Assembly (NCBI GenBank): GCA_963848635.1
Contig: CAWKEA010000005.1
Location: 257,526-321,525 of the forward strand
Source of the DNA: an uncultured bacterium
Lineage (GTDB): Bacteria; Patescibacteriota; Minisyncoccia; Phycocordibacterales; PALSA-1337
Direction of reading: 5' to 3'
DNA: 64,000 nt
Part shown: piece by piece, positions 3,912-58,696 of the stretch
Layout: each line of letters begins with the position of its first letter
Position numbering within the stretch: position 1 is the stretch's first letter
Position numbers and translations under genes: made by a program
Notes under the pieces: generated by a model
Told to the model about the DNA's origin: nothing
The model's database searches: none
The model's input: only the letters and a program-made list of their open reading frames with translations

Positions 3912-4788
3912 ATTGTGTTTCGATAAATTTTCGAATATGCTCGTTCCCACGTAGCGAGCGGATTTCCCGCACTACGCGAGTCCAAAGTTTGCAAATTCAT
4001 AGTCTCTCGAACTGTCAACATCTTTTGTAATACCTTTTTCGTCAGATGCTCTTTGCTTTCACCAAGCGATCAATCTGGCAGAAAATCTCGCAAATTCTTT
4101 TGCTTTGAAGCAATTGAAAAGGATTTTTCTTGAAGAAAGGATGATTATTTTACCAAGATATCCTATTGAGAACTTACCGAGTAGCAATAACATTGGCAAT
4201 GATTGGCGCGTTCTTCTTTTTGAAAGTAACACTTCGCCGCATTTCAATGATAATTCTGTCACATCGTTCCAAAGATCTCCTTGTCCCTTTCCTGCATCTT
4301 CATAGTGGAGTCATTTGGACACTCGACTCCTCATGCGTTATAAAGAAGACTTCCGATATTGACATAGAAGCAACCTTCACCATCGATAAGTCCGACAACA
4401 TAATCTGTTTGACACCTTTGGATTTGTGTCCTTCCCATGCGCTTATTATATCAAATTAAGTTGACGCATAGTACTACGACTCAGCTGACTTCTACATAAA
4501 TTTAATTATACTTTATCATTTTTGATAACAACGCATCAGATCTCCCGGGTCATTCATTTTTCTGTTCCAACCATCCTAATCAAGGTTTTCAACGGAAATT
4601 TCCCCTGACTCACCGCCCTTAGTTGGAGTCGTCATCGCCTTCTTTCTATCGGGCTGCCCTTTGCATCCCGGATCCTCCGAACATCCCCTCGCGGAAGATG
4701 TACTATCCTTTCGCTACTACCGCACTCATAAATCACGGAATGGATTTTAACAGCTAGATGACACGACTGCCAAGCGCATTGCATTCTG
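3912..4788 (-). mobile_element. intron-like insertion in 16S rRNA (between the 1392 block GACGGGCGGT and GTACAAG...GAACGTATTCACCG), probably a group I intron with a degenerate LAGLIDADG homing endonuclease ORF
   Basis: The conserved 16S sequence stops after gacgggcggt(attgtg) at ~3912 and resumes at ~4788 with tgagtacaagacttgagaacgtattcaccg. The ~875 nt between have no 16S homology. A minus-strand mini-ORF in them encodes MGRTQIQRCQTDYVVGLIDGEGCFYVNIGSLLYNA*, which carries a LAGLIDADG motif. Confidence 0.7.
4330..4438 (-). pseudogene. degenerate LAGLIDADG homing endonuclease remnant (first LAGLIDADG motif, premature stop)
   Basis: Minus-strand translation gives ...DYVVGLIDGEGCFYVNIG...; VGLIDGEGCF matches the LAGLIDADG/LAGFIDGEG consensus. 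The ORF is only 35 aa before its stop. Confidence 0.55.
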
Positions 4789-5874
4789 AGTACAAGACTT
4801 GAGAACGTATTCACCGCAGCGTGCTGATCTGCGATTACTAGCGATTCCGGCTTCATGAGGTCGAGTTGCAGACCTCAATCCGAACTGGCGCATCCTTTAG
4901 AGGGTTGGCTCCGCCTTTTATCGGCTTGGCGTCCTTTTGTAGATGCGATTGTAACACGTGTGTAGCCCAGGGTATCAGAGGGCCATGCTGACTTGGCGTC
5001 ATCCTCGCCTTCCTCCCACGATTCTGCTCGATCAAGTCCAATCCTAAGTCATAAAGTCTTAAGTTCGCATTCTTGATTTACTTTATGAACTTCCGATTGA
5101 ATGCAATCAAAATCGTGGGCAGTCTCGCCTGACATATATAACAGGCAACGAGGGTTGCGTTCGTTACCCCACTTAAGGGAACAATTCAAACCACGAACTG
5201 ACGACAGCCATGCAGCACCTGTCTAACTGCCTTGCGGCGACCAAAGTTTCCTCTGGTCTTCAGCTAGATTTCTAACCCTGGTAAGGTTTTTCGTTTGTCG
5301 TCGAATTGAACCACATGTTCCACCGCTTGTGCAAGTCCCCGTCTATTTCTTTGAGTTTTAACCTTGCGGTCGTACTACCCAGGCGGATCTCTTAACGCGT
5401 TAGCTACGGCTCGAGGAGGGTCGATACTCCTCAAACCAAGAGATCATCGTTTAGGGCGTGGACTACTGGGGTATCTAATCCCATTCGCTACCCACGCTTT
5501 CGTGTTTCAGCGTCAAGAATGCTCCAGTCTCCTGCCTTCGCTTTTGGTGTTCCCCATGATATCAACGCATTTCACCGCTACACCATGAGTTCCAGAGACC
5601 CCTCGCATCTTCTAGCTATGCCGTTTCCCGCGCAGGTCCCCGGTTGAGCCGAAGAATTTAACGCGAGACTAACACAGCCGCCTACACACCCTTTACGCCC
5701 AATAATTCCGGATAACGCTTGAGGCACTCGTATTACCGCTGCTGCTGGCACGAGTTTAGCAACCTCTTATTCATGAGCTCTTCAATAAACTTAGTCGCTC
5801 ATAAAAGGTTTTTACGTACCGAAGTACTTCATCAACCACGCGGCGTCGCTCCGTCAGGCTTTCGCCCATTGCGG

Positions 5875-5905
<31 letters not shown>

Positions 5906-6457
5906 ATGGACCGTGTCTCAGTTCCATCGGTGGGGGTCAGCCTCTCAGCTCCCCTAGACGTCATAGCCTTGGTAGGCCGTTACCCTACCAACTAGCTGAT
6001 ATCGAAAAGGCCGTTCCAAGGGCGAAAAAACTTTACCCTTCAGCCTTGCGGCTTCAGGGACTATCGGGAATTATCTAACCTTTCGGCTAGTTATGCCCGA
6101 CCCTTGGGGACGTACCTGATTATTACTACCTCGTCTGCCGGTGACCCTTGCGGATCCCCTAGACTTGCATGCCTTATCCACGCCGCCAGCGTTCATCCTG
6201 AGCTAGAATCAAACTCTATCAATAAATGAACGGAACAAAAGAGAAAACGCAAATTCGGCTTGTCTGCCGTGAGGCAGACCTGTGCCGACTTTCATAATCG
6301 CCAATGATCACTGTTTATTGATATCGTCCCATCCAGCTCGTAAATTATCGTTTATTATTTGGACTTGCTTTTATCTCAATCTTTTTTCAAGATTGTGTGT
6401 GAATTTCAATTTTCTAAATTTTCAAAGGGCCCAGCCCCCGTTTGGGACATGGGATGT

Positions 6458-9113: not shown

Positions 9114-10889
9114 TTATATCCCCTGATTCAACAGATTCCTCGTGGCAGGACCACAACGCCGAGCGGGTGAAAGACCGTTCGCTGTTTGATACTCTTCAAC
9201 AGCGGCCTTTGTAGCAGGCCCGAAATAGCCAGTCGCAGAGCTCGTGAGGTATCCGTCCTTTATCAAACGCTGTTGGAGAGCAACTACATCTGGATCAGAC
9301 TGACCAATCTTATTCATGCCTTCATAAAGATAATTATTAAAGGTATATGAAGTAGATGAAGTATTAACTATGCCTTGAGACGGCACAGGCGTCGCTGTGG
9401 GCATGCAGACAAGGCCGGCGGGACAATTGGAGGCGACTGTGGATGAAGAAGCCCCCAACGAGGCCGATGAAAAATTGCCTGTCCAAAAGTACTGCTTTAT
9501 AGAAGAGCCAGCAGAGTTCGAGAACGAGATAATGACAGGCAATGGCATGCTTTCGGAGCCTGTCATCGTGTATACCGCCGTGTAAGGACCACTGCCGGAC
9601 CCATTGACCGATACTGTCGAATTGTTGACCGACACTGAAGGATTGATAATGCTCTGGTTCGCATTGAATCCGATCGTCAGAGAATTACTACCGACAAGGA
9701 AGCTGTTGCTCTGATTTCCCGAAGAAATGGAAAAAGAAGAAAGCGCGAGAGGAATCGAAAGCGTCGAGGAGACGTTTGAAGAAACGCTCACATACAGAAC
9801 ATTGCATTGATTGTTTGTACTGCAGACATTTATGTCCGAGCTACCGACACCGATAGCATTCAACGTCAAGATGTTTCCATTTAGGTTCGGTTTCACGACG
9901 CTCGGATTCGAATTGTTCGAGACATAATATTGCCCTGTATTGCTTCCGGAAAGCGAAACCACCTGATTCTGCCCTGGTGCCAGATTGACGTTGCTCGGAT
10001 TAAACGTAATCAATGAAGAAACAGATGTATTGGATACCGACCCTCCTGCTGGATTCGAATAAGAATTTATCGTGCCGCATTCTCCATCCGACTGGCATAC
10101 TGTTATAGTAGAGCCGCCAGCAGAAAGTCCGGTAACGATCACGTTGTCTCCGCTGACTGTTACCGATACTGAAGATGGATTCGTATTTTGCGAGATAGAA
10201 AATGGGCCAAGGCCAGATATTGTTATGGTTTGACTCTGACCAACCGTCAAGTTTGCGACACTTGAACTTAAAGAAAAAGATGAAACCGGCGACGACAAGA
10301 CACTTATGTTTATGGGCTGACAGTCATTGTTCGCATCACAGACAGTTATTGTGACTGTACCTAAGTTATCATTAGCCGTTATTACAACCGTATTCCCAAA
10401 TATGGTCCCGATAGCTACGGCTGGATTCGTATCGCCTGAAATATGTAATGCTCCAACAGCGTTGTTTGCGGTCACACTTCCGCTCTGCCCCGCACCCATG
10501 TTCAATACAATTTGGCTTAAAGACAGACTGCCTGATGAGCCCGAATTCACTGGCCAATACGAAGAAGAAGATTGCGCCCCGTCAACAACCGCATATACTG
10601 GAGCGCTTCCAGGAATACCGTACGTTCCGGCATTGATCGTACTAGATAGATAGCCGCTTGAATTCGTCAGTCCCAGGCTGACGTACCCTGTCGAAGACGT
10701 AGCAGAAGTATAATAAAGCGTTACTGCGGCTTCTGGGTCAGCGCCATACACAGTGACTTGCACGGAATTGCCAGCAATAGCGGACAAAGTGAGAGAAGGA
10801 GTCGATGCGGCAGATACCTTTAAAAAACCAACAAACAAAAACAATACGATCATCAAAGAAGACAGGATTATATGTTTACTTTTTCTCAT
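9114..10889 (-). CDS. secreted S/T/N-rich surface protein with Ig-like repeats and C-terminal peptidoglycan-binding domain
   Basis: N-terminal signal/TM MRKSKHIILSSLMIVLFLFVGFLKVSAAST, long low-complexity S/T/N/G-rich beta-repeat region, and a C-terminal PG_binding_1-like domain (...SDPDVVALQQRLIKDGYLTSSATGYFGPATKAAVEEYQ...). Confidence 0.75.
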   Translation of the reverse strand: MRKSKHIILSSLMIVLFLFVGFLKVSAASTPSLTLSAIAGNSVQVTVYGADPEAAVTLYYTSATSSTGYVSLGLTNSSGYLSSTINAGTYGIPGSAPVYAVVDGAQSSSSYWPVNSGSSGSLSLSQIVLNMGAGQSGSVTANNAVGALHISGDTNPAVAIGTIFGNTVVITANDNLGTVTITVCDANNDCQPINISVLSSPVSSFSLSSSVANLTVGQSQTITISGLGPFSISQNTNPSSVSVTVSGDNVIVTGLSAGGSTITVCQSDGECGTINSYSNPAGGSVSNTSVSSLITFNPSNVNLAPGQNQVVSLSGSNTGQYYVSNNSNPSVVKPNLNGNILTLNAIGVGSSDINVCSTNNQCNVLYVSVSSNVSSTLSIPLALSSFSISSGNQSNSFLVGSNSLTIGFNANQSIINPSVSVNNSTVSVNGSGSGPYTAVYTMTGSESMPLPVIISFSNSAGSSIKQYFWTGNFSSASLGASSSTVASNCPAGLVCMPTATPVPSQGIVNTSSTSYTFNNYLYEGMNKIGQSDPDVVALQQRLIKDGYLTSSATGYFGPATKAAVEEYQTANGLSPARRCGPATRNLLNQGI

Positions 10890-15518: not shown

Positions 15519-17798
15519 ATGGCAAAAAAGAAAAACGGCAAGGACAAAAAAGAGAACGGATCATCGTTCGTCAACGAGCTCAAGACAGAAACACTGCAGG
15601 CAGTACTATCGATCATATTTCTAGTGGCAGGCATACTGACTGCTCTGGCCAAATTCGACAAAGCAGGCTGGGTCGGAAACGTCTTTTACCACTATGCTCA
15701 TACCTTGTTCGGTGTGGGCTATTTTCTCCTTCCGCTCATATGCATCATCCTCGCTACAGCGTTCTTGCGGGGCATACGGCAAAGATTCACCTTCTGGAAA
15801 CTGATCGGCGGATTGCTATTCTTGCTCTCCGGCCTCGGCCTGGTTGACCTTGTCTTCAAGGACGAGGGCGGCATCATCGGCCACTATGTGTCGAGCCCTC
15901 TCATATCGCTCGTCGACGTATACGCCTCCGCGGCGATCCTCATCGCGTTAGTCGCCATCTCTCTTCTCATCACATTCGAGACAGGCGTCACATTTGGAAC
16001 CTTAGCATTTTGGAAGCAAAAGGACGGCGATGAAAAGAAGAAGATGAAAAAAGAGCCAGCCTCGGATGACTCGGACGTAGACGAGATGGTGGAGGAAGCC
16101 GAAAAAAAGCTCGATGGCGACAAGCAAAAAGACGACGACAAAGAGGAAAGAGCAACGCCGATTCCGCCACAGCCAAAAAAAGCGGAAAAAAAGAAGGCGG
16201 ACGATGAAGAGGATTTTGCCATGGCCGCAAACACGAGGAGCATGAAGCCGTTCACTCCCCCGCCGCTCTCGCTCCTTGAAAAAGACAGCGGCCGGCCGGA
16301 GACCGGCGACATCAAGGCGAATGCGAATATCATAAAGAGGACGTTGCAGAATTTCGGCATAAGCGTGGAGATGGACGAGATATCGATCGGACCTTCGGTG
16401 ACGCGATATGCTTTGAAACCTGCTGAAGGCGTCAAGCTGTCGCGCATAACCGCGCTCAGCAACGACTTGTCTCTGTCCTTGGCGGCACATCCGATACGCA
16501 TCGAGGCGCCTATACCAGGAAAGAGCCTCGTCGGCATAGAGATACCGAATACTTCAAAGACGACTGTCGGCCTTGCCACGATTCTCGGTTCCGAAGAATT
16601 CCAGCGGTCTGAAAAGCCCCTGCTCATCTCTCTCGGAAAATCGATCACGGGAGCTTCTCATTTCACCAACCTGGCCAAAGCGCCGCATATGCTCGTAGCC
16701 GGCACCACCGGCTCGGGCAAATCAGTCATGATACACGCTGTCATCACTTCCCTGCTCTACCGCAATTCGCCCGAGGATCTGAAGTTCATCATGATAGACC
16801 CAAAACGCGTCGAATTGACGCTCTATAACAAAATTCCCCATCTTTTGACGCCGGTCATAACAGATGCGAAAAAAGCTATTTTGGCCTTGAAATGGGCTGG
16901 CAAAGAGATGAGCCGAAGATACGATATACTCGAAAAATCCTCGGCCCGAGACATCGAGTCATATCATAAAAACGTCCTCGACCCGGCGATCGAAAAAGCC
17001 ATAGCCAAAGTCAAAAGCCAAAAGGCAAAAGGCACAAGCGAAGATGGGAACGGGGATGAAGGGAAATTCCCCGAAACGATGCCGTATATCGTCATCGTGA
17101 TCGATGAATTGGCTGATATCATGCAGGCGTATCCGAGAGAGCTGGAAAGCGCCATAGTCCGTCTGGCCCAGATGAGCCGCGCCGTGGGCATCCATCTGGT
17201 CCTATCGACCCAAAGGCCCTCGGTCAACGTCATAACAGGCCTCATAAAAGCGAATATCCCGACGCGTGTGGCGTTACAGGTCGCTTCGCAGATAGATTCG
17301 CGCACTATCCTCGACCAGCCTGGAGCGGAAAAACTGCTCGGTGCCGGCGATATGCTCTATCTCGGCGCGGATATGTCAAAACCAGTGCGCCTACAATCGG
17401 CGTATATATCAGAAAGCGAAGTGAAGAAAGTGACCAAGTATCTCGCTGATACATACAAAGACGAGATCATGGGCGAAATAAACCTCTCAGGGCCGCAGAG
17501 CGAGCCGGGTCAGGACGCCGTTTTCTCGGCCAATCTCGATGATGAGACGCTCGAAGACGACGATATGTATGAGGACGCACGCCTCGCCGTAGTTTCCGCC
17601 GGCAAAGCTTCGACATCGTACCTCCAGCGCAAGCTCGGCGTCGGCTATTCGCGCGCGGCAAAATTGATGGACATGCTCGAGGAACGCGGCGTCATCGGAG
17701 CGGCGAACGGATCAAAACCGAGAGAGGTGATGGGTGCGGCTGTGGCGAGCGAAGATTCCTTGATCGACACAACAGAACCGAACGATGAGGCAATTTAA
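15519..17798 (+). CDS. ftsK: DNA translocase FtsK/SpoIIIE
   Basis: N-terminal TM helices, Walker A GTTGSGKSVMIHAVITSL, the characteristic IVIDELADIM and LVLSTQRPSVNVITGLIKANIPTRVALQVAS segments, and a C-terminal gamma domain (YLQRKLGVGYSRAAKLMDMLEERGVIG). Confidence 0.92.
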   Translation: MAKKKNGKDKKENGSSFVNELKTETLQAVLSIIFLVAGILTALAKFDKAGWVGNVFYHYAHTLFGVGYFLLPLICIILATAFLRGIRQRFTFWKLIGGLLFLLSGLGLVDLVFKDEGGIIGHYVSSPLISLVDVYASAAILIALVAISLLITFETGVTFGTLAFWKQKDGDEKKKMKKEPASDDSDVDEMVEEAEKKLDGDKQKDDDKEERATPIPPQPKKAEKKKADDEEDFAMAANTRSMKPFTPPPLSLLEKDSGRPETGDIKANANIIKRTLQNFGISVEMDEISIGPSVTRYALKPAEGVKLSRITALSNDLSLSLAAHPIRIEAPIPGKSLVGIEIPNTSKTTVGLATILGSEEFQRSEKPLLISLGKSITGASHFTNLAKAPHMLVAGTTGSGKSVMIHAVITSLLYRNSPEDLKFIMIDPKRVELTLYNKIPHLLTPVITDAKKAILALKWAGKEMSRRYDILEKSSARDIESYHKNVLDPAIEKAIAKVKSQKAKGTSEDGNGDEGKFPETMPYIVIVIDELADIMQAYPRELESAIVRLAQMSRAVGIHLVLSTQRPSVNVITGLIKANIPTRVALQVASQIDSRTILDQPGAEKLLGAGDMLYLGADMSKPVRLQSAYISESEVKKVTKYLADTYKDEIMGEINLSGPQSEPGQDAVFSANLDDETLEDDDMYEDARLAVVSAGKASTSYLQRKLGVGYSRAAKLMDMLEERGVIGAANGSKPREVMGAAVASEDSLIDTTEPNDEAI

Positions 17799-17869
17799 AA
17801 ATTAATGACGCTATACTATTCCCTTATTTAATTTAAATTAATGCCTTTCATCTCCATCTTTAACCTATT

Positions 17870-18271
17870 ATGAACCGGGGCACCAATCAGAAATTATTCA
17901 CAGCGATCATCGTTGCAGTCATCGCCGGTGGTCTGCTTTATTTTATCTATAAGACTTTCCAGGCTTATTTTTCAGGGCCAAACATAACTGTCACTGAACC
18001 TGCCGATTACAGCGCATTTTCGACTTCGACTGCTACCATCGTCGGTACAGCACAGAGGGTCCAAGACATCACACTCGATGGACGCTCTATCATCATCGAC
18101 AATAAGGGAAATTTTTCGGAAATTATCCTGCTTGTACCCGGTTACAATATAGAAACGCTCGCCGCGCACGATCAGTTCGGTCATATGACGCAAAAGCGCC
18201 TCGAATTGGTCTATACAGCGCCTAAACCAGGGCTCAATACCGCTTCAACGAGCGTTGCGACTTCGACATAA
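17870..18271 (+). CDS. hypothetical membrane-anchored protein
   Basis: 133-aa ORF with a single N-terminal TM (LFTAIIVAVIAGGLLYFIY) followed by a beta-rich ectodomain. Confidence 0.45.
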   Translation: MNRGTNQKLFTAIIVAVIAGGLLYFIYKTFQAYFSGPNITVTEPADYSAFSTSTATIVGTAQRVQDITLDGRSIIIDNKGNFSEIILLVPGYNIETLAAHDQFGHMTQKRLELVYTAPKPGLNTASTSVATST

Positions 18272-18383
18272 ATCAAAAGTTATTTTCTAATAGTCTTCTT
18301 AAGATTCCTTTATAAAAAATTTAACTTTTCTTAATGAGAGTTGTGTATAATATGTGCTATTATACGCTAAATAGAGCACAACT

Positions 18384-18902
18384 ATGTCTACTAAAATCAC
18401 AAAAACAAAGAAAAAAGAGGCCTCGATCGATGACGGATTTTCTACAAAAGCCGATGTCAAAGAGATCGTTAGAAATGCCATCAACGAACTGACAATGATT
18501 ATCGGGGATTCTTTTGGAAAGATGGAGAAATCGATGAATGCTCGATTCGATGAAGCTGATGAGAGATTTGACGAAATGGATTCGAAGTTCAAACTGATTG
18601 ACGAGAGGTTCGATCGGATCGATGAGAAGTTCGTTCTGATTGATGAGAAGTTCGTTCTGATTGATGAGAGATTCGAGCGGATCGATGAGAGATTCGAGCG
18701 GATCGATGAGAAGTTCGTTCTGATTGACGAGAGATTCGACGAGATAGATAGACGGTTCGAAGAAGTCGACTTGAAATTCGACGGTGTAACAAATCGAATC
18801 CAGGGGCTTTGGAATGCTTTTGATTCTCACACCCTCGACTGTGTCAAACGCGACGAGCACGATAGATTAGAAAAGAGAGTGCGGGTATTGGAAACAGCTT
18901 AA
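18384..18902 (+). CDS. coiled-coil protein built from 11 tandem heptads (DE[KR]FxxI), N-terminus resembling RecA N-terminus
   Basis: Protein is ...DERFDEM DSKFKLI DERFDRI DEKFVLI DEKFVLI DERFERI DERFERI DEKFVLI DERFDEI DRRFEEV DLKFDGV... The DNA at 18558-18788 is 11 consecutive 21-bp units, several identical (gatgagaagttcgttctgatt). The N-terminus MSTKITKTKKKEASIDDGF parallels the RecA N-terminus [18 protein letters not shown]. Confidence 0.6.
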   Translation: MSTKITKTKKKEASIDDGFSTKADVKEIVRNAINELTMIIGDSFGKMEKSMNARFDEADERFDEMDSKFKLIDERFDRIDEKFVLIDEKFVLIDERFERIDERFERIDEKFVLIDERFDEIDRRFEEVDLKFDGVTNRIQGLWNAFDSHTLDCVKRDEHDRLEKRVRVLETA

Positions 18903-18930
18903 ATTACAAATTTATATTTAAAATAAAATC

Positions 18931-20034
18931 ATGTCAAAGAAAATCAAGGAAACAAAGGAAAAATCAGCCTCGATCGAAAGCCATCGCGACCCGACCGACA
19001 ATATAAGGGAGACCCTGAATGCTATCCGCGGAAAATTCGGCGATGACGCCATCATGAAGCTCGGCGACAAGCCGCATGTCAATGTTGACGCCATCTCGAC
19101 TGGCTCCATAGGCCTTGATGCCGCTCTTGGCGTGGGTGGAATGCCGCGCGGACGCATCATTGAGGTATTTGGCCCGGAATCATCCGGAAAGACCACCCTT
19201 ACCCTGCATGTGATTGCAGAGGCTCAAAAGAAGGGCGGCATTTGCGCGTTTATCGACGCAGAGCATGCCATGGACCCGGAATATGCGGCCAGGCTTGGCG
19301 TCAAAACAGATGAATTGCTCATTTCCCAACCAGATACAGGCGAACAGGCTCTCGAGATCGTCGATTCGCTCGTCCGTTCCGGCAAGCTCGACGTCATCGT
19401 CATAGACTCGGTGGCCGCTCTCACGCCAAAAGACGAGATCGAGGGCGACATGGGAGCGTATCACGTCGGCAAGCAGGCCCGCCTCATGTCTCAGGCATTG
19501 CGCAAGCTCACCGCCATAGTGGCCAGGTCAAAGACGATCGTCATATTCATCAACCAGATCCGCATGCAGATAGGCGTCATGTTCGGCAATCCCGAGACGA
19601 CGCCTGGCGGCAAAGCGCTCAAGTTCTATACGTCTGTGCGTCTCGATATACGCCGCATAGCACAGATAAAGAAAGGCGACGAGGTCATGGGCGGACGCGT
19701 CAGGGTCAAGGTAGTCAAGAACAAAGTCGCCGCTCCCTTCCGTCAAACAGAATTCGATCTCATGTATAACGAAGGCATCTCAAAGGAGGGCGAGATCATT
19801 GCTCTTGGCGAAAAGATGGAGATATTGGCAAAATCTGGCAATTCGTATAAATATGGCGAGCTCACTCTCGGCCGCGGCTATGATGCTACCCGCCAGTTTT
19901 TAAAGGAAAACAAGGAAGTTCGAGAAGAATTACTGACAAAGATCCGTGCTCGATTGAATGAAGGCATCACTGTCGGAAAGAATGATGCGAATAGCAAATC
20001 AGGCGGAGAAAGCACGTCATCGAGCGAGGAATGA
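18931..20034 (+). CDS. recA: recombinase RecA
   Basis: [20 protein letters not shown] (Walker A), [78 protein letters not shown]. Confidence 0.95.
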
Positions 20035-20248
20035 TTCATCAAAACAATCTTGATGTGATATATACAGGATATACTGTTTTTATCGTGAAAAAACAAAAGA
20101 TATATTTAACAAAGAATCGTCTTGGCCTCGAAATCATCGATCCTGATCTCGCTGAAAGATTGGAAGATATCGCTCATGAAGGTTTATGAGCAAGCTTGCT
20201 TTTATGAATGTTAATTGATAGCTTGAGGTTAGAAAAAGAAAGGATACT

Positions 20249-20554
20249 ATGACAACAGAAAAGATTCTGCAAGTTACGGATGTGTATCGTGCCCGATTCG
20301 AAGCAGAAAAGATACCAAAACAAAGGATAGACCCTCGGAAATTCTTCGGCTGGCTGGAAATCTTTGGGTTCATCGTAGTGCCGAAAAAACGCCTTTTGGC
20401 CCATGCGCATTATTTGCTCGATGGCGTTGAACAATACGCTCGAGATCCTGAGAAAGTCGGCAAAACAGGAAGGCATCTCGGCTCGCTCCAGACTCTCTTG
20501 TGCACCGCCAAGTGGTATACGCTCGAAGAACTTATGGAACATAACCGGCCGTAA
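20249..20554 (+). CDS. hypothetical protein (101 aa)
   Basis: Plus-strand ORF with plausible composition. It overlaps a less protein-like minus ORF (20174..20587). Confidence 0.3.
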   Translation: MTTEKILQVTDVYRARFEAEKIPKQRIDPRKFFGWLEIFGFIVVPKKRLLAHAHYLLDGVEQYARDPEKVGKTGRHLGSLQTLLCTAKWYTLEELMEHNRP

Positions 20555-20679
20555 ATACCGACATAACCGCTGATAGAGACAACACAACCGCCTTGAAATA
20601 CGAGGCGGTTTTGCTTTTTATAGGAAAATCATATAGACTGCTTCAATTCCTCAATTATCAACTTCAATCATCAATTCCT

Positions 20680-21249
20680 ATGTCAATGCTTGAATACAGC
20701 GAGATAACCGAACACAAATACATCATCCTGGACGGCCAGCCCTACGAAGTGCTGACGTCGCACGTCTTTAGGAAGCAACAGAGAAAGCCGGTCAACGCGA
20801 CCAAGCTCAAGAACCTCGTCACAGGAAAAGTGACCGAGTATTCCTTTCACCAGTCAGAAAAAGCAGAAGAAGCAGAGATAGATTCTCGCGAATCGAAATT
20901 CCTGTATGCAAATCGCGGACAATATTGGTTCATCGACCCGACCGACCCGTCAAAACGCTGGAGCGTCAGCGATGAGATCGTCGGCCCTCGCGGCAAATAT
21001 CTGAAGCCGAATAGCATCCTCGAACAGCTCCTTTTTGGCGAGCAGAGCGTCGGCTTCAAATTTCCTATAACAGTCGACCTCAAGGTCACCGAAGCGCCGC
21101 CGAATGTCAAAGGAGACACAGCTACCGGCGGAAATAAAACCGTCACCCTCGAAACCGGCGCGACCGCCAACGTTCCCCTTTTCGTAACCGAAGGCGACGT
21201 CATCCGAGTGAACACTGAGACGGGAGAATATCGAGAAAGGGTCAAATAG
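20680..21249 (+). CDS. efp: elongation factor P
   Basis: C-terminal KVTEAPPNVKGDTATGGNKTVTLETGATANVPLFVTEGDVIRVNTETGEY matches EF-P ([27 protein letters not shown]...VPLFI.EGD.I.V.T.TGEY). Start chosen at MSMLEYSEITEHKYIILDGQPYEV (ATG 20680), not the upstream extension of the ORF-track entry. Confidence 0.85.
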   Translation: MSMLEYSEITEHKYIILDGQPYEVLTSHVFRKQQRKPVNATKLKNLVTGKVTEYSFHQSEKAEEAEIDSRESKFLYANRGQYWFIDPTDPSKRWSVSDEIVGPRGKYLKPNSILEQLLFGEQSVGFKFPITVDLKVTEAPPNVKGDTATGGNKTVTLETGATANVPLFVTEGDVIRVNTETGEYRERVK

Positions 21250-21259
21250 CTGATGATTC

Positions 21260-21290
21260 AAAAAAAGACCGGTCTCCCGGTCTTTTTTCT
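21260..21290. terminator. bidirectional terminator between efp and rpsR (GACCGG-TCTC-CCGGTC flanked by A7/T6)
   Basis: aaaaaaagaccggtctcccggtctttttt. Confidence 0.7.
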
Positions 21291-21303
21291 TCTTTGCTTG
21301 CTT

Positions 21304-21525
21304 TTATCTGACCACGTATGGCAATAAACCCATGAATCGCGAGCGTTTGACCGCGACTGCGAGCTGTCGCTGGCTCTTTGCTGATACGCCAGTGCGCTTG
21401 CGGGATATGAGGCGGCCATACGGATTGATGAATTTTTTGAGGATCTCTGTATCCTTGTAATCGATGAACCGTATATGGTTTTTAGTGAAGTAGCATTCTT
21501 TGTTCATGGTTTTGAGTAGATTCAA
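21304..21525 (-). CDS. rpsR: 30S ribosomal protein S18
   Basis: [50 protein letters not shown] matches the S18 signature. Confidence 0.9.
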
Positions 21526-22123: not shown

Positions 22124-22636
22124 TTAAGCTGCTTTGACTATCTCATCAAGTTTTTGATCTACTGCGGCTATTTCATCAACCGTCAAAGGCGCGACCGCGG
22201 GAGCCGCAGCCGGTTCAATGGCCGGTTCATCTACGACTGGTTTCAGCGGCTTTTCTTCTGATCTATTTTCCGATTTCGCCCTTTTGCCGAGATACGTCTT
22301 TTCTTTGACGGTAGCTACGGCCAACGTGCGCAAGATGCTCTGATTTTGATCGAAAGATTTTTTTATCTCTTCGATGGCAGATGGAGAGCAGGAAAACTTT
22401 ATCCAGCCGAAATATCCCTGGTCAAAGCGCTGATGGGCGCCGCCGCCGGTGCTCTTGTCCATTTCATAGGCAAGAGAAATGAGCGACGGAGATTCTTCGT
22501 CGATGACCTCAGCGGAATTCTTTGCCAAGAGGGCGGCAAACCCCGACGTCTGTTCGGCGACTTTTTCCTGTGGGATGGACGGGACGAGAAGATAACCGAT
22601 TTCGTAGACTTTTGAGTCAGATGTGGATTCGTTCAT
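22124..22636 (-). CDS. rpsF: 30S ribosomal protein S6 (with extended acidic/Ala-rich C-terminus)
   Basis: N-terminal YEIGYLLVPSIPQEKVAEQT...LISLAYEM fits S6. Classic rpsF-ssb-rpsR gene order. Confidence 0.85.
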   Translation of the reverse strand: MNESTSDSKVYEIGYLLVPSIPQEKVAEQTSGFAALLAKNSAEVIDEESPSLISLAYEMDKSTGGGAHQRFDQGYFGWIKFSCSPSAIEEIKKSFDQNQSILRTLAVATVKEKTYLGKRAKSENRSEEKPLKPVVDEPAIEPAAAPAVAPLTVDEIAAVDQKLDEIVKAA

Positions 22637-22980
22637 GGTATTCTCAAGTATGCGGCAATTCGTCTTTTGGACGAAGCATGATCGTGCTTGTTATTCACAA
22701 ATCAGGGCCTCACACGTATTAGCTGATAAAGAGTACTTTCTTCCGTCTTCGCTCGGACGTCATGTCCGCAAGCGGCCACGCCGCTCCTCACTAGCCGGAA
22801 TAGATCCGCCTGTCGCAGGTTTTCTGGCCTGTTTTGGCCATTTTAGCCGCGAGCAAAAAGCGTATGATGAGACTATCACAATGGCATCCCTTGCGCAAGA
22901 TGATGCGACATATAGTATAGCGGAGTGTTATTAAGAAAAGTTAAAATAATTATAAAGAAACCTTAATAAAATAAGGGCGG

Positions 22981-23805
22981 CTACAAAGAGAAAAACTTCC
23001 TCGTATTTTCAAGAAGAGCCGAGCGAACATTTTCATCGTCCTCGCCACGGATACGGGCGATCGCCTTGACCACCTCGATCACATTTGCCGGCTCGTTTCG
23101 CTTGCCGCGATGCGGAACTGGCGCCACATATGGACAATCGGTCTCGGACATGATCTGGTTGAGTGGGACTGCCTTGATGAACTCGTCATAGTCATGGGTA
23201 AAGGTAAGAACGCCGGTGAACGAGACTGCGCCGCCTGATCCAACGATTGTCTGCATATCTTCCATGCTTCCGGCAAAAAAATGAAAGTTGAACGGCACTT
23301 TGGCAGATTTCTTCAATATGCTCAGTGCGTCCTTGTAGGCATCACCAGCGACCGTGCCCGCGTCGCCTTTTCTTTTGCCATTCCTCACATGGAGCATGAG
23401 CGGCTTCCCTGCTTCGTTCGCAAGGGCGATATGTTTTTCGAATGCTTCTATCTGTGCTGGGATATCGGATTCTTGCGTATGAAAGTAATCGAGCCCGCAT
23501 TCTCCTATCGCGACGACTTTTGGGTGCAAGGCGAGACGGCGAAGCTCCTGGAAATCGCTTTCGTCCTGGTCGAGCCCGACATCTGCCGTTTTCACTTCTG
23601 TCGGATGAATGCCGACGGCTGCCCAGATATTCTCGTGAGTCTCGGTGAGCTCGATGGCCAATTTCGAGGTTTTGACATCGGTGCCGATCGTTATCATGCC
23701 GACGCCGGCTTTTTCAGCGCGAACGATTGTCTCCTCCCTGTCAGAATCATATTCAGGAAAGTTGATGTGGCCGTGGATGTCGATGTATCGGATTGCTTTT
23801 TTCAT
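22981..23805 (-). CDS. tatD: TatD-family metal-dependent hydrolase (DNase)
   Basis: YIDIHGHINFPEY...GECGLDY...LMLHVRN...FHFFAGS...SETDCPYVAP is the TatD signature set. Confidence 0.9.
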   Translation of the reverse strand: MKKAIRYIDIHGHINFPEYDSDREETIVRAEKAGVGMITIGTDVKTSKLAIELTETHENIWAAVGIHPTEVKTADVGLDQDESDFQELRRLALHPKVVAIGECGLDYFHTQESDIPAQIEAFEKHIALANEAGKPLMLHVRNGKRKGDAGTVAGDAYKDALSILKKSAKVPFNFHFFAGSMEDMQTIVGSGGAVSFTGVLTFTHDYDEFIKAVPLNQIMSETDCPYVAPVPHRGKRNEPANVIEVVKAIARIRGEDDENVRSALLENTRKFFSL

Positions 23806-58152: not shown

Positions 58153-58624
58153 AAGCTTTGTGCTCTGCCAGTAGGCTGCACTCCGCTGTACTGTTTACCG
58201 TGGTATTATACCATACCTATATAATTAAAGTCAATAGCGACAGAAAACAGCCCCCGGATGTGCGTAGTGTGTCCGATTCGAAGAGATTTTCCGCTACCTG
58301 CGTATACCAGTCTTTCTTAGAAAATTACCCACTAGGGTGAAAGAAACTGCATAGACAACAAACAAGACTATTTTCAACGGATACCAAAAAGAACACGACC
58401 ATTGAGCAGGCGTCCGACACTTCAATGCACGAAGTTGTTAAGGATTTGATAAAACTTTCAGAACTACTGAAACACGGCTCTACATATTACGAATTGGCTA
58501 ATTCCAGAGAAAAAGAGGAAATTATGAGAATAATCTTTTCAGAACTTTCTGTTTCCGGAAATATCCTTACGTACAAATGTAAAAACGGCTTCAAGGCTCT
58601 AGAAAGTCGTTTTAATCATTCTTG

Positions 58625-58696
58625 TATCCCCACGTGGAATCGAACCACGATCTCGAGCTTCGGAGGCCCGCGCTCTATCCGTTGAGCTATGAGGAC
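58625..58696 (-). tRNA. tRNA-Arg (anticodon CCG)
   Basis: Reverse complement gives GTCCTCA-TA-GCTC-AACGGATA-GAGC-G-CGGGC-CTCCGAA-GCTCG-AGAT-CGTGG-TTCGATT-CCACG-TGGGGAT-A. The acceptor stem pairs 7 of 7 (2 GU), the T-loop is TTCGATT, the anticodon loop CT-CCG-AA. No encoded CCA. Confidence 0.85.

Follow-up and report, generated by a model that had tools for sequence, protein, structure and literature searches.

The window, the whole 64-kb stretch of DNA analysed here, carries on its plus strand a 172-aa open reading frame, hereafter the coiled-coil gene, directly upstream of recA (Table 1), where a sequence-only reading of this DNA had placed it. The recA start at 18931 lies 28 nt past the stop codon of the coiled-coil gene, and the RecA domain (Pfam PF00154), which identifies recA, begins at RecA residue 25; protein P0121 is 100% identical to the RecA of the window. 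Within the 64 kb we found no paralogue of the coiled-coil gene. The window also holds a complete bacterial 16S rRNA gene (4739-6224, minus strand) and a tRNA-Arg(CCG) gene (58624-58696, minus strand). The coiled-coil gene is a real gene, a member of a small uncharacterised family, and its product is a fairly ordinary, uncharacterised tandem-heptad repeat protein. Two curiosities attach to it: an apparent micro-conversion from recA at its 5′ end and a promoter motif that it has in common with the ssb region.

Table 1. Features of the coiled-coil gene, its upstream region and recA in the window
Feature	Position	Strand	Basis
Promoter-like region	18299-18363	+	Motif match; conservation in orthologs
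Distal degenerate box, TTAAGATTCCTTTA	18299-18312	+	Conserved arrangement
Proximal box, TTAACTTTTCTTAA	18321-18334	+	Exact motif match
-10 element, TATAAT	18346-18351	+	Conserved arrangement
Extended -10-like element, TGCTATTAT	18355-18363	+	Conserved arrangement
Coiled-coil gene, 172-aa ORF of an unnamed Patescibacteria family	18384-18902	+	ORF; syntenic orthologs
5′ patch, 47 nt, codons 1-16 (MSTKITKTKKKEASID)	18384-18430	+	79% identity in register with recA 18931-18977
Central conserved segment, residues 25-51, DVKEIVRNAINELTMIIGDSFGKMEKSM	18456-18536	+	Alignment with IVDSAIGELTIIVSNSFTRIEKSM and similar ortholog sequences
In-frame array of twelve 21-bp heptad units, D-E-[KR]-F-x-x-[ILVMA]	18537-18788	+	Repeat analysis; unit comparison
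Exact-copy core of the array, units 5-9, order A A B B A	18621-18725	+	Exact unit matches
C-terminal conserved segment, family signature, TNRIQGLWNAFDSHTLDCVKRDEHDRLEKRVRVLETA	18789-18899	+	Ortholog alignments
Spacer between coiled-coil gene and recA, 28 nt	18903-18930	+	Without terminator-like hairpin
recA, 367 aa; first 47 nt (18931-18977) the likely patch donor	18931-20034	+	Pfam PF00154, E = 1.4e-136

The heptad array and the predicted rod

The array encodes, in order, NARFDEA, DERFDEM, DSKFKLI, DERFDRI, two copies of DEKFVLI, two of DERFERI, a third DEKFVLI, DERFDEI, DRRFEEV and DLKFDGV, with Phe at position 4 and Ile, Val, Met or Ala at position 7 in all 12 units. Eleven of these units, spanning 18558-18788, begin with Asp and account for the eleven consecutive units described in the sequence-only reading, although the array as a whole has 12. 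The same reading called the repeats perfect, a description that fits only the five units in the centre; those on the outside depart from these exact copies at 3-13 of 21 positions. Its counts of identical units are correct: unit A (GATGAGAAGTTCGTTCTGATT) occurs exactly three times (at 18621, 18642 and 18705) and unit B (GATGAGAGATTCGAGCGGATC) exactly twice (at 18663 and 18684). The array is the most prominent repeat in the window, with a Tandem Repeats Finder score of 158-232 against at most 70 for every other repeat in the 64 kb. Perfection in the centre only is the usual picture when the latest duplications are internal, and the five exact units point to recent duplication, in line with the recent change in repeat number that had been suggested.

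In the mechanism that we propose, an ancestral heptad of the form D-x-[KR]-F-x-x-V, present in one to three copies, would have been amplified to 12 copies in the lineage of the window by in-frame 21-bp duplication, through slipped-strand mispairing or unequal recombination, and the five central exact-copy units would represent the latest of these duplications.

Given a six-sequence alignment, AlphaFold2 predicts a single uninterrupted helix over residues 21-171, with a pLDDT of about 90, after a disordered segment at residues 1-19, with a pLDDT of about 40. The continuous predicted helix and the 12 heptads, which place Phe at a and Ile, Leu, Val, Met or Ala at d, agree with the coiled-coil heptads of the earlier reading. 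At a helix rise of ~0.15 nm per residue, the predicted rod would be roughly 22 nm long. Its stripe of Phe and Ile, Leu or Val needs burying, which makes a homo-oligomeric coiled-coil rod the form that the protein most likely takes. The protein is small and probably cytoplasmic; neither a signal peptide nor a membrane anchor is evident in it.

Similar heptads occur in other proteins. Two from Pantoea, P0002 and P0005, contain the heptad [DE]-[KR]-F-x-[KR]-I-D, in which Phe again occupies a and Ile d; over the repeats they are 45-53% identical to the window protein. At 265 and 251 aa, respectively, they are exactly two heptads apart, which shows that the copy number of the ERFxKID unit varies in an unrelated architecture too. 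Both carry a CCDC90-like/DUF1640-type head (a weak PF07798 match) and a C-terminal transmembrane helix, whereas the window protein has no PF07798 match and no hydrophobic C-terminal segment. The conserved ends are unrelated, and the likeness, confined to the repeat, may be convergent. A core of Phe and Ile also characterises the 'Phe-Ile zipper' coiled coils that Spencer and Hochbaum designed de novo (Biochemistry 2017), which in contrast to the window protein are short synthetic designs, reportedly forming antiparallel hexamers. Finally, the heptads give weak matches to the generic coiled coils of DUF1664 (PF07889; 20.2 bits), DUF16 (the Mycoplasma MPN010 family; 15.1 bits) and XhlA (10.9 bits), all well below the respective gathering cut-offs of 34.6, 40 and 34.7 bits; these matches are compositional, and we reject membership in all three families.

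A Patescibacteria family of variable length

For the 172-aa protein, every Pfam and NCBIfam match stays below the cut-off of its family, and searches of PDB, PHROGs and PADLOC gave only generic, sub-threshold, compositional matches to coiled coils. Rfam contains no relevant family, whether the window is judged at the gathering score or the regions 18250-19000 and 22580-23000 by E-value, and we found no paper on the coiled-coil gene or on a partner in the recA operon of Patescibacteria. What unites the family is a pair of conserved segments on either side of the place where the array lies. The C-terminal signature reads N-R-I-x-G-x-x-N-x-F-D-x-H-x-L-D-C-V-x-R-x-E-H-x-x-L-E-K-R-V-x-x-L-E; in the recA-linked orthologs the last ~45 residues are conserved as F[DE]GVNNRIQGLWNAFDxHTLDCVxRxEHxRLEKRVRVLExA, and the window segment TNRIQGLWNAFDSHTLDCVKRDEHDRLEKRVRVLETA is 80-89% identical over 44 aa to those of P0001, P0015 and P0018. 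The central segment is conserved as ELTxIVGxSF, or in its longer form ELTxIVGxSFxxxEKS; in the window the corresponding ELTxI[IV]GxSF...EKS stretch is NELTMIIGDSFGKMEKS, and relatives have GELTIIVSNSFTRIEKS, DELTIIIGNSFTRFEDS and similar sequences.

With a repeat-free construct as the query, a large protein collection yielded at least three proteins, and a scan of GTDB genomes yielded one distant family member. P0015, a repeat-poor ortholog, served as the query of a complete HMMER scan against 1.84 billion representative proteins; at E <= 1e-3 it matched just 25 clusters, all 48-169 aa long except one of 425 aa, and the C-terminal signature was recovered again. The RecA matches bear the taxon names Paceibacterota, Parcubacteria or Patescibacteria, and locus L005 is labelled Saccharibacteria; from these sequences, the family is apparently restricted to Patescibacteria. 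In five of six comparisons over the last 40 codons, 14-20 codon differences are synonymous and 3-7 non-synonymous, a pattern that points to clear purifying selection on the C-terminal 40 codons; the sixth comparison, with L017, has 18 non-synonymous differences.

Within the signature, residues 149-159 (18828-18860; D-x-H-x-L-D-C-V-x-R-x-E-H) place a His and a Cys at consecutive core-like heptad positions, and a second His follows ten residues past the first. The Cys is replaced by Tyr in some family members. A metal- or redox-sensitive layer at the His and Cys of the coiled coil is conceivable.

Ortholog lengths lie between 73 aa (P0242) and 246 aa (L018) because two different heptad arrays expand independently. 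The F-type heptad, D-x-[KR]-F-x-x-V, lies between the central and C-terminal segments and is present in 12 copies in the window, three in L010, two in L012 and P0242, and one each in L001, L003, L008, L017 and P0243. A second heptad, L-K-[SG]-D-[FL]-x-x, lies N-terminal of the central segment in 0-19 copies: none in the window, L010, P0242 and P0243, and 10-19 in L003, L008, L017 and L018. In these relatives, amplification would have acted on another heptad, L-K-S-D-[FL]-x-x, towards the N-terminus. Separate amplification of the two arrays between lineages suggests that function would reside in the conserved ends, with the repeats between them as a spacer of adjustable length. At finer scale, a 60-nt in-frame indel and three substitutions, all inside a repeat array, are the sole differences between the DNA of L017 and that of L018, which we take as direct evidence from sequence of strain-level length change within the family. 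The length-variable protein proposed earlier is thus borne out on an evolutionary scale; compared among related genomes, the number of F-type heptads is one to three in the orthologs against 12 in the window.

An independent assembly from a different sample (L015; ENA ERZ25039529) carries the same 12 units, with two differences from the window in 719 nt. Across 17319-21510, divergence between the two is mosaic: flanking DNA differs by 1-6%, a single substitution falls within 18276-19124, which covers the coiled-coil gene and the first 190 nt of recA, and the recA body (19125-19980) diverges by ~6%, mainly at third codon positions. This mosaic suggests recombination between strains. L015 also has single-base deletions of the kind typical of long-read assemblies.

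These comparisons bear on two other accounts of the array. Repeats are easily mis-assembled, and the exact protein sequence is absent from the large protein collection, so that the gene might be a spurious reading frame or a mis-assembled repetitive stretch; the independent L015 assembly, together with a reading frame kept under purifying selection in the orthologs, leaves that account hardly credible. A contingency locus, in which the number of units would shift often within populations and give mixed rod lengths, would fit the five exact 21-bp copies, the family's wide span of lengths and the strain-level indels of L017 and L018, which lie in a different array. Length change by gain or loss of in-frame tandem repeats is familiar from bacterial surface proteins with variable repeat number, and the family resembles these in the in-frame gain or loss between strains seen in the L017 and L018 orthologs. 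The window protein differs from them in being probably cytoplasmic, and the window and L015 are without variation: their arrays are identical despite different samples and 1-6% divergence in the flanks. On/off switching would moreover be impossible, because unit lengths are multiples of three. Frequent change within populations is on this evidence unlikely, and we prefer the lineage-level amplification set out above.

Gene order, promoter-like element and linkage to recA

In eight loci (L001, L003, L008, L010, L012, L015, L017 and L022), the gene order is ftsK, a Glucodextran_B-like small membrane gene, the coiled-coil gene and recA. The recA-linked loci fall into the groups L001/L002, L003/L004/L006, L008/L009, L010/L011, L012, L015, L017/L018 and L022, and downstream of recA they continue with efp and then rpsR-ssb-rpsF. 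This order is the rule for most relatives whose RecA is ~80% or more identical to that of the window; in the clade at ~80-96% RecA identity, about ten distinct loci have the gene immediately upstream of recA, with spacers of 12-65 nt (in L010, the likely recA start is an internal MPKK). L016, with a RecA 95% identical, has no coiled-coil gene; its recA is preceded by a 146-nt spacer (L016 2855-3000) in a different upstream region, where the double box is absent and a separate -10-like TGTATAAT is present. Family members at greater distance have other neighbours: in L005, L014, L020 and L021 the gene is convergent with cysS, and in L019 it sits beside rmuC. The absence from L016 and these distant positions indicate that adjacency to recA is specific to the clade and not a property of the whole family.

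The window has both the ftsK-to-recA order and a putative double-box promoter. In addition to the motif matches of Table 1, a promoter scan marked a promoter-like site with a TG at 18334-18363. The double box and -10 element recur upstream of the ortholog in every recA-linked locus with known upstream sequence, among them L001, L003, L008, L010, L012, L017 and L022, and are diverged in L021. The -10 region (18346-18364) is palindromic, TATAAT-N7-ATTATA, and TG[ACGT]TATTAT upstream of the gene is kept across the family, including most members unlinked to recA. The coiled-coil gene would thus have its own conserved promoter, with recA 12-65 nt downstream in this clade. We found no terminator in the spacer between the two genes, and a short spacer without a terminator, behind an upstream promoter, suggests that recA is probably co-transcribed with the coiled-coil gene. 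The co-transcription raised in the earlier reading is hence plausible for the window, with its 28-nt gap, no terminator and a conserved upstream promoter.

The exact 14-mer of the proximal box occurs at only two sites in the 64 kb, 18321-18334 and, on the minus strand, 22931-22944. The second belongs to another double box (22931-22966, minus strand), TTAAGGTTTCTTTA-N8-TTAACTTTTCTTAA followed by TATACT, with its distal box at 22953-22966; it lies past tatD, with rpsF-ssb-rpsR some 270 nt downstream of it. This second site is also present in L001 (~10755-10777), L003 (~10642-10664), L008 (~7967) and L016 (~6380). By position and motif, the double box might represent either a promoter architecture common to both sites or an operator that links recA and ssb expression.

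Just downstream of the second promoter-like element, at about 22840-22905 on the minus strand, lies a near-invariant stretch of ~70 nt, CGCAAACCTTGCGCAAGGCCTGCACCTGTGATAATCTCATCATACGCTTTTTGCTCGCGGCCAAAA, that is also found in L001, L003, L008 and L016 and is more conserved than the neighbouring genes. It has no Rfam match, and RNAalifold gives hairpins with almost no covariation; it may be a leader or a small RNA of a new type.

The RecA-like 5′ end and its interpretation

The first 47 nt of the coiled-coil gene and of recA are identical in register at 37 positions, which upholds the earlier report of a 5′ parallel between the two genes. Among 2,211 pairs of gene starts in the window, where identity over the 44 nt after the ATG has a mean of 11.9 and a standard deviation of 3.3, this pair scores highest at 34/44, followed by 25/44. 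Among ATG-anchored 47-mers on both strands (n=2,333), no other sequence exceeds 26/47 against either gene. The shared DNA element noted previously, the 11-mer GCCTCGATCGA, has exactly two copies in the window, each at nt 37-47 of one of these genes. Many genes of this genome have A-rich, Lys-rich starts (that of FtsK reads MAKKKNGKDKK), but these do not explain the match. The likeness does not extend upstream of the ATG; downstream it stops at nt 47, so that it takes in RecA residues 1-16 and no part of the RecA fold, and the 172-aa protein has no RecA match in Pfam or NCBIfam. The 16 residues that the patch encodes lie in the segment predicted to be disordered, with a pLDDT of about 40.

The 37/47 match is confined to the window and L015; 7-8 other recA-linked loci have 15-26/47, and the 5′ end of the window gene matches its own recA at 37/47 but any ortholog at no more than 26/47. 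At their 5′ ends, the recA genes of the window and L003 agree at 32/47, and the leader KSASI[ED]SHRDP (more fully KSASI[ED]SHRDPT[DE]N) is common to the RecA of the window, L003 and L022. Because this leader and its GC[CA]TCGATCGA sequence, present in the recA of the window and of both relatives, appear ancestral in recA, recA would be the donor. The nearest ortholog N-terminus is that of L022 (MPTETSTKEKAADDDSFVTKAD vs MSTKITKTKKKEASIDDGFSTKAD). Over 12 nt, GCCTCGATCGAT in the window and GCTGCCGACGAT in L022, five sites differ, and at all five the window gene has the recA nucleotide. Its upstream promoter and first 13 nt match the ortholog type. The reading that fits best is a short gene-conversion patch with recA as the likely donor: a tract of ~38-47 nt of the recA 5′ end would have been copied by non-reciprocal conversion into a recipient whose 5′ end was already loosely similar, altering only the disordered Lys-rich leader, with some divergence afterwards. 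The 79% identity of the patch today implies that the conversion either is old or was followed by divergence, and the K-rich, A-A-D-D-D start of the L022 ortholog, itself loosely similar, suggests that part of the resemblance may be ancestral.

Other accounts of the likeness and of the linkage have some of this evidence on their side. The sequence-only reading suggested that duplication of the recA 5′ end gave rise to the gene, a model in which a repeat array would have been added later; in-register identity from the ATG and the adjacency of the genes are what such an origin would leave, but syntenic orthologs in the equivalent position, with one to three heptads, have unrelated 5′ ends without similarity to RecA, other family members exist far from recA, the promoter and first 13 nt are of ortholog type and the similarity ends outside the RecA fold, so that we regard this origin as very unlikely. 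Selection might instead maintain the shared 5′ sequence, either as a common cis-element (a translation-initiation region or the site of an RNA or protein regulator) or as a common N-terminal peptide (a Lys-rich tail for DNA binding or docking). An exact register from the ATG, the frequency of A-rich, Lys-rich starts in the genome, a leader M[SP]KK[ILT]KE kept in RecA across the clade and a patch unchanged in L015 accord with this idea; yet L015 is too closely related to demonstrate constraint, the regions upstream of the ATG are dissimilar and no other ortholog shares the sequence, which is therefore not a conserved property of the gene pair, and we judge such selection improbable. The protein could, finally, be a dedicated partner or regulator of RecA, a functional analogue of RecX or DinI whose expression the operon would keep matched. 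Its position immediately upstream of recA in about ten distinct loci and the same promoter motif ahead of the rpsF-ssb-rpsR region speak for this; the absence of the gene from L016, a close relative that has recA, the distant members unlinked to recA and the lack of similarity to RecX, DinI or other known RecA modulators in Pfam and NCBIfam speak against it and make it doubtful.

Other bacteria, too, have small genes in one operon with recA: recX follows it in many, cinA precedes it in Firmicutes and Deinococcus, and dinI is a third example. The coiled-coil gene resembles them in being small, in adjoining recA and in being probably co-transcribed with it. It differs in its all-helical predicted rod, as against the helical-repeat fold of RecX and the folds of CinA and DinI, and in being missing from L016; no RecX, DinI or CinA model in Pfam or NCBIfam matches the protein at E <= 1.

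Overall, we think it likely that the gene encodes a coiled-coil rod protein with a single helix of ~150 residues, from a family of Patescibacteria, with amplified heptads and a 5′ patch derived from recA. As to function, the best guess, and a tentative one, is a scaffold or accessory factor that acts on DNA or RecA; a functional connection to RecA is itself possible at a similarly low level of confidence, and a structural rod without an obligatory link to RecA is the more conservative reading. Further out, and with little probability, the protein might be an unrecognised partner of RecA or the nucleoid, its rod length tuned by heptads and its leader converted to mimic the Lys-rich tail of RecA so that both reach a common target (DNA or a shared partner); the double box TTTTAACTTTTCTT[TA]A-N8-TTTTAACTTTTCTTAAT, upstream of its own operon and of rpsF-ssb-rpsR, would then mark a DNA-metabolism regulon of a non-LexA type.

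If the descriptive reading, an amplified rod with a recA-derived patch, is true, two independent heptad arrays stretch one short protein to different extents between lineages and even strains, a very short conversion tract has passed between the 5′ ends of adjacent, unrelated genes, and an uncharacterised family confined to the candidate phyla radiation has come to supply the promoter-proximal gene of a recA operon. In practical terms the gain is modest: attention is drawn to a candidate RecA-associated factor and to a candidate promoter or operator common to the recA operon and the ssb region, in organisms whose DNA-damage regulation is poorly known.

One further observation concerns the two genes together: 18421-18443, at the 5′ end of the coiled-coil gene, is complementary at 19 of 23 positions to 20007-20029, at the 3′ end of recA. 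This complementarity occurs in the window and L015 only and is not conserved in relatives; we set it aside as probably due to chance.
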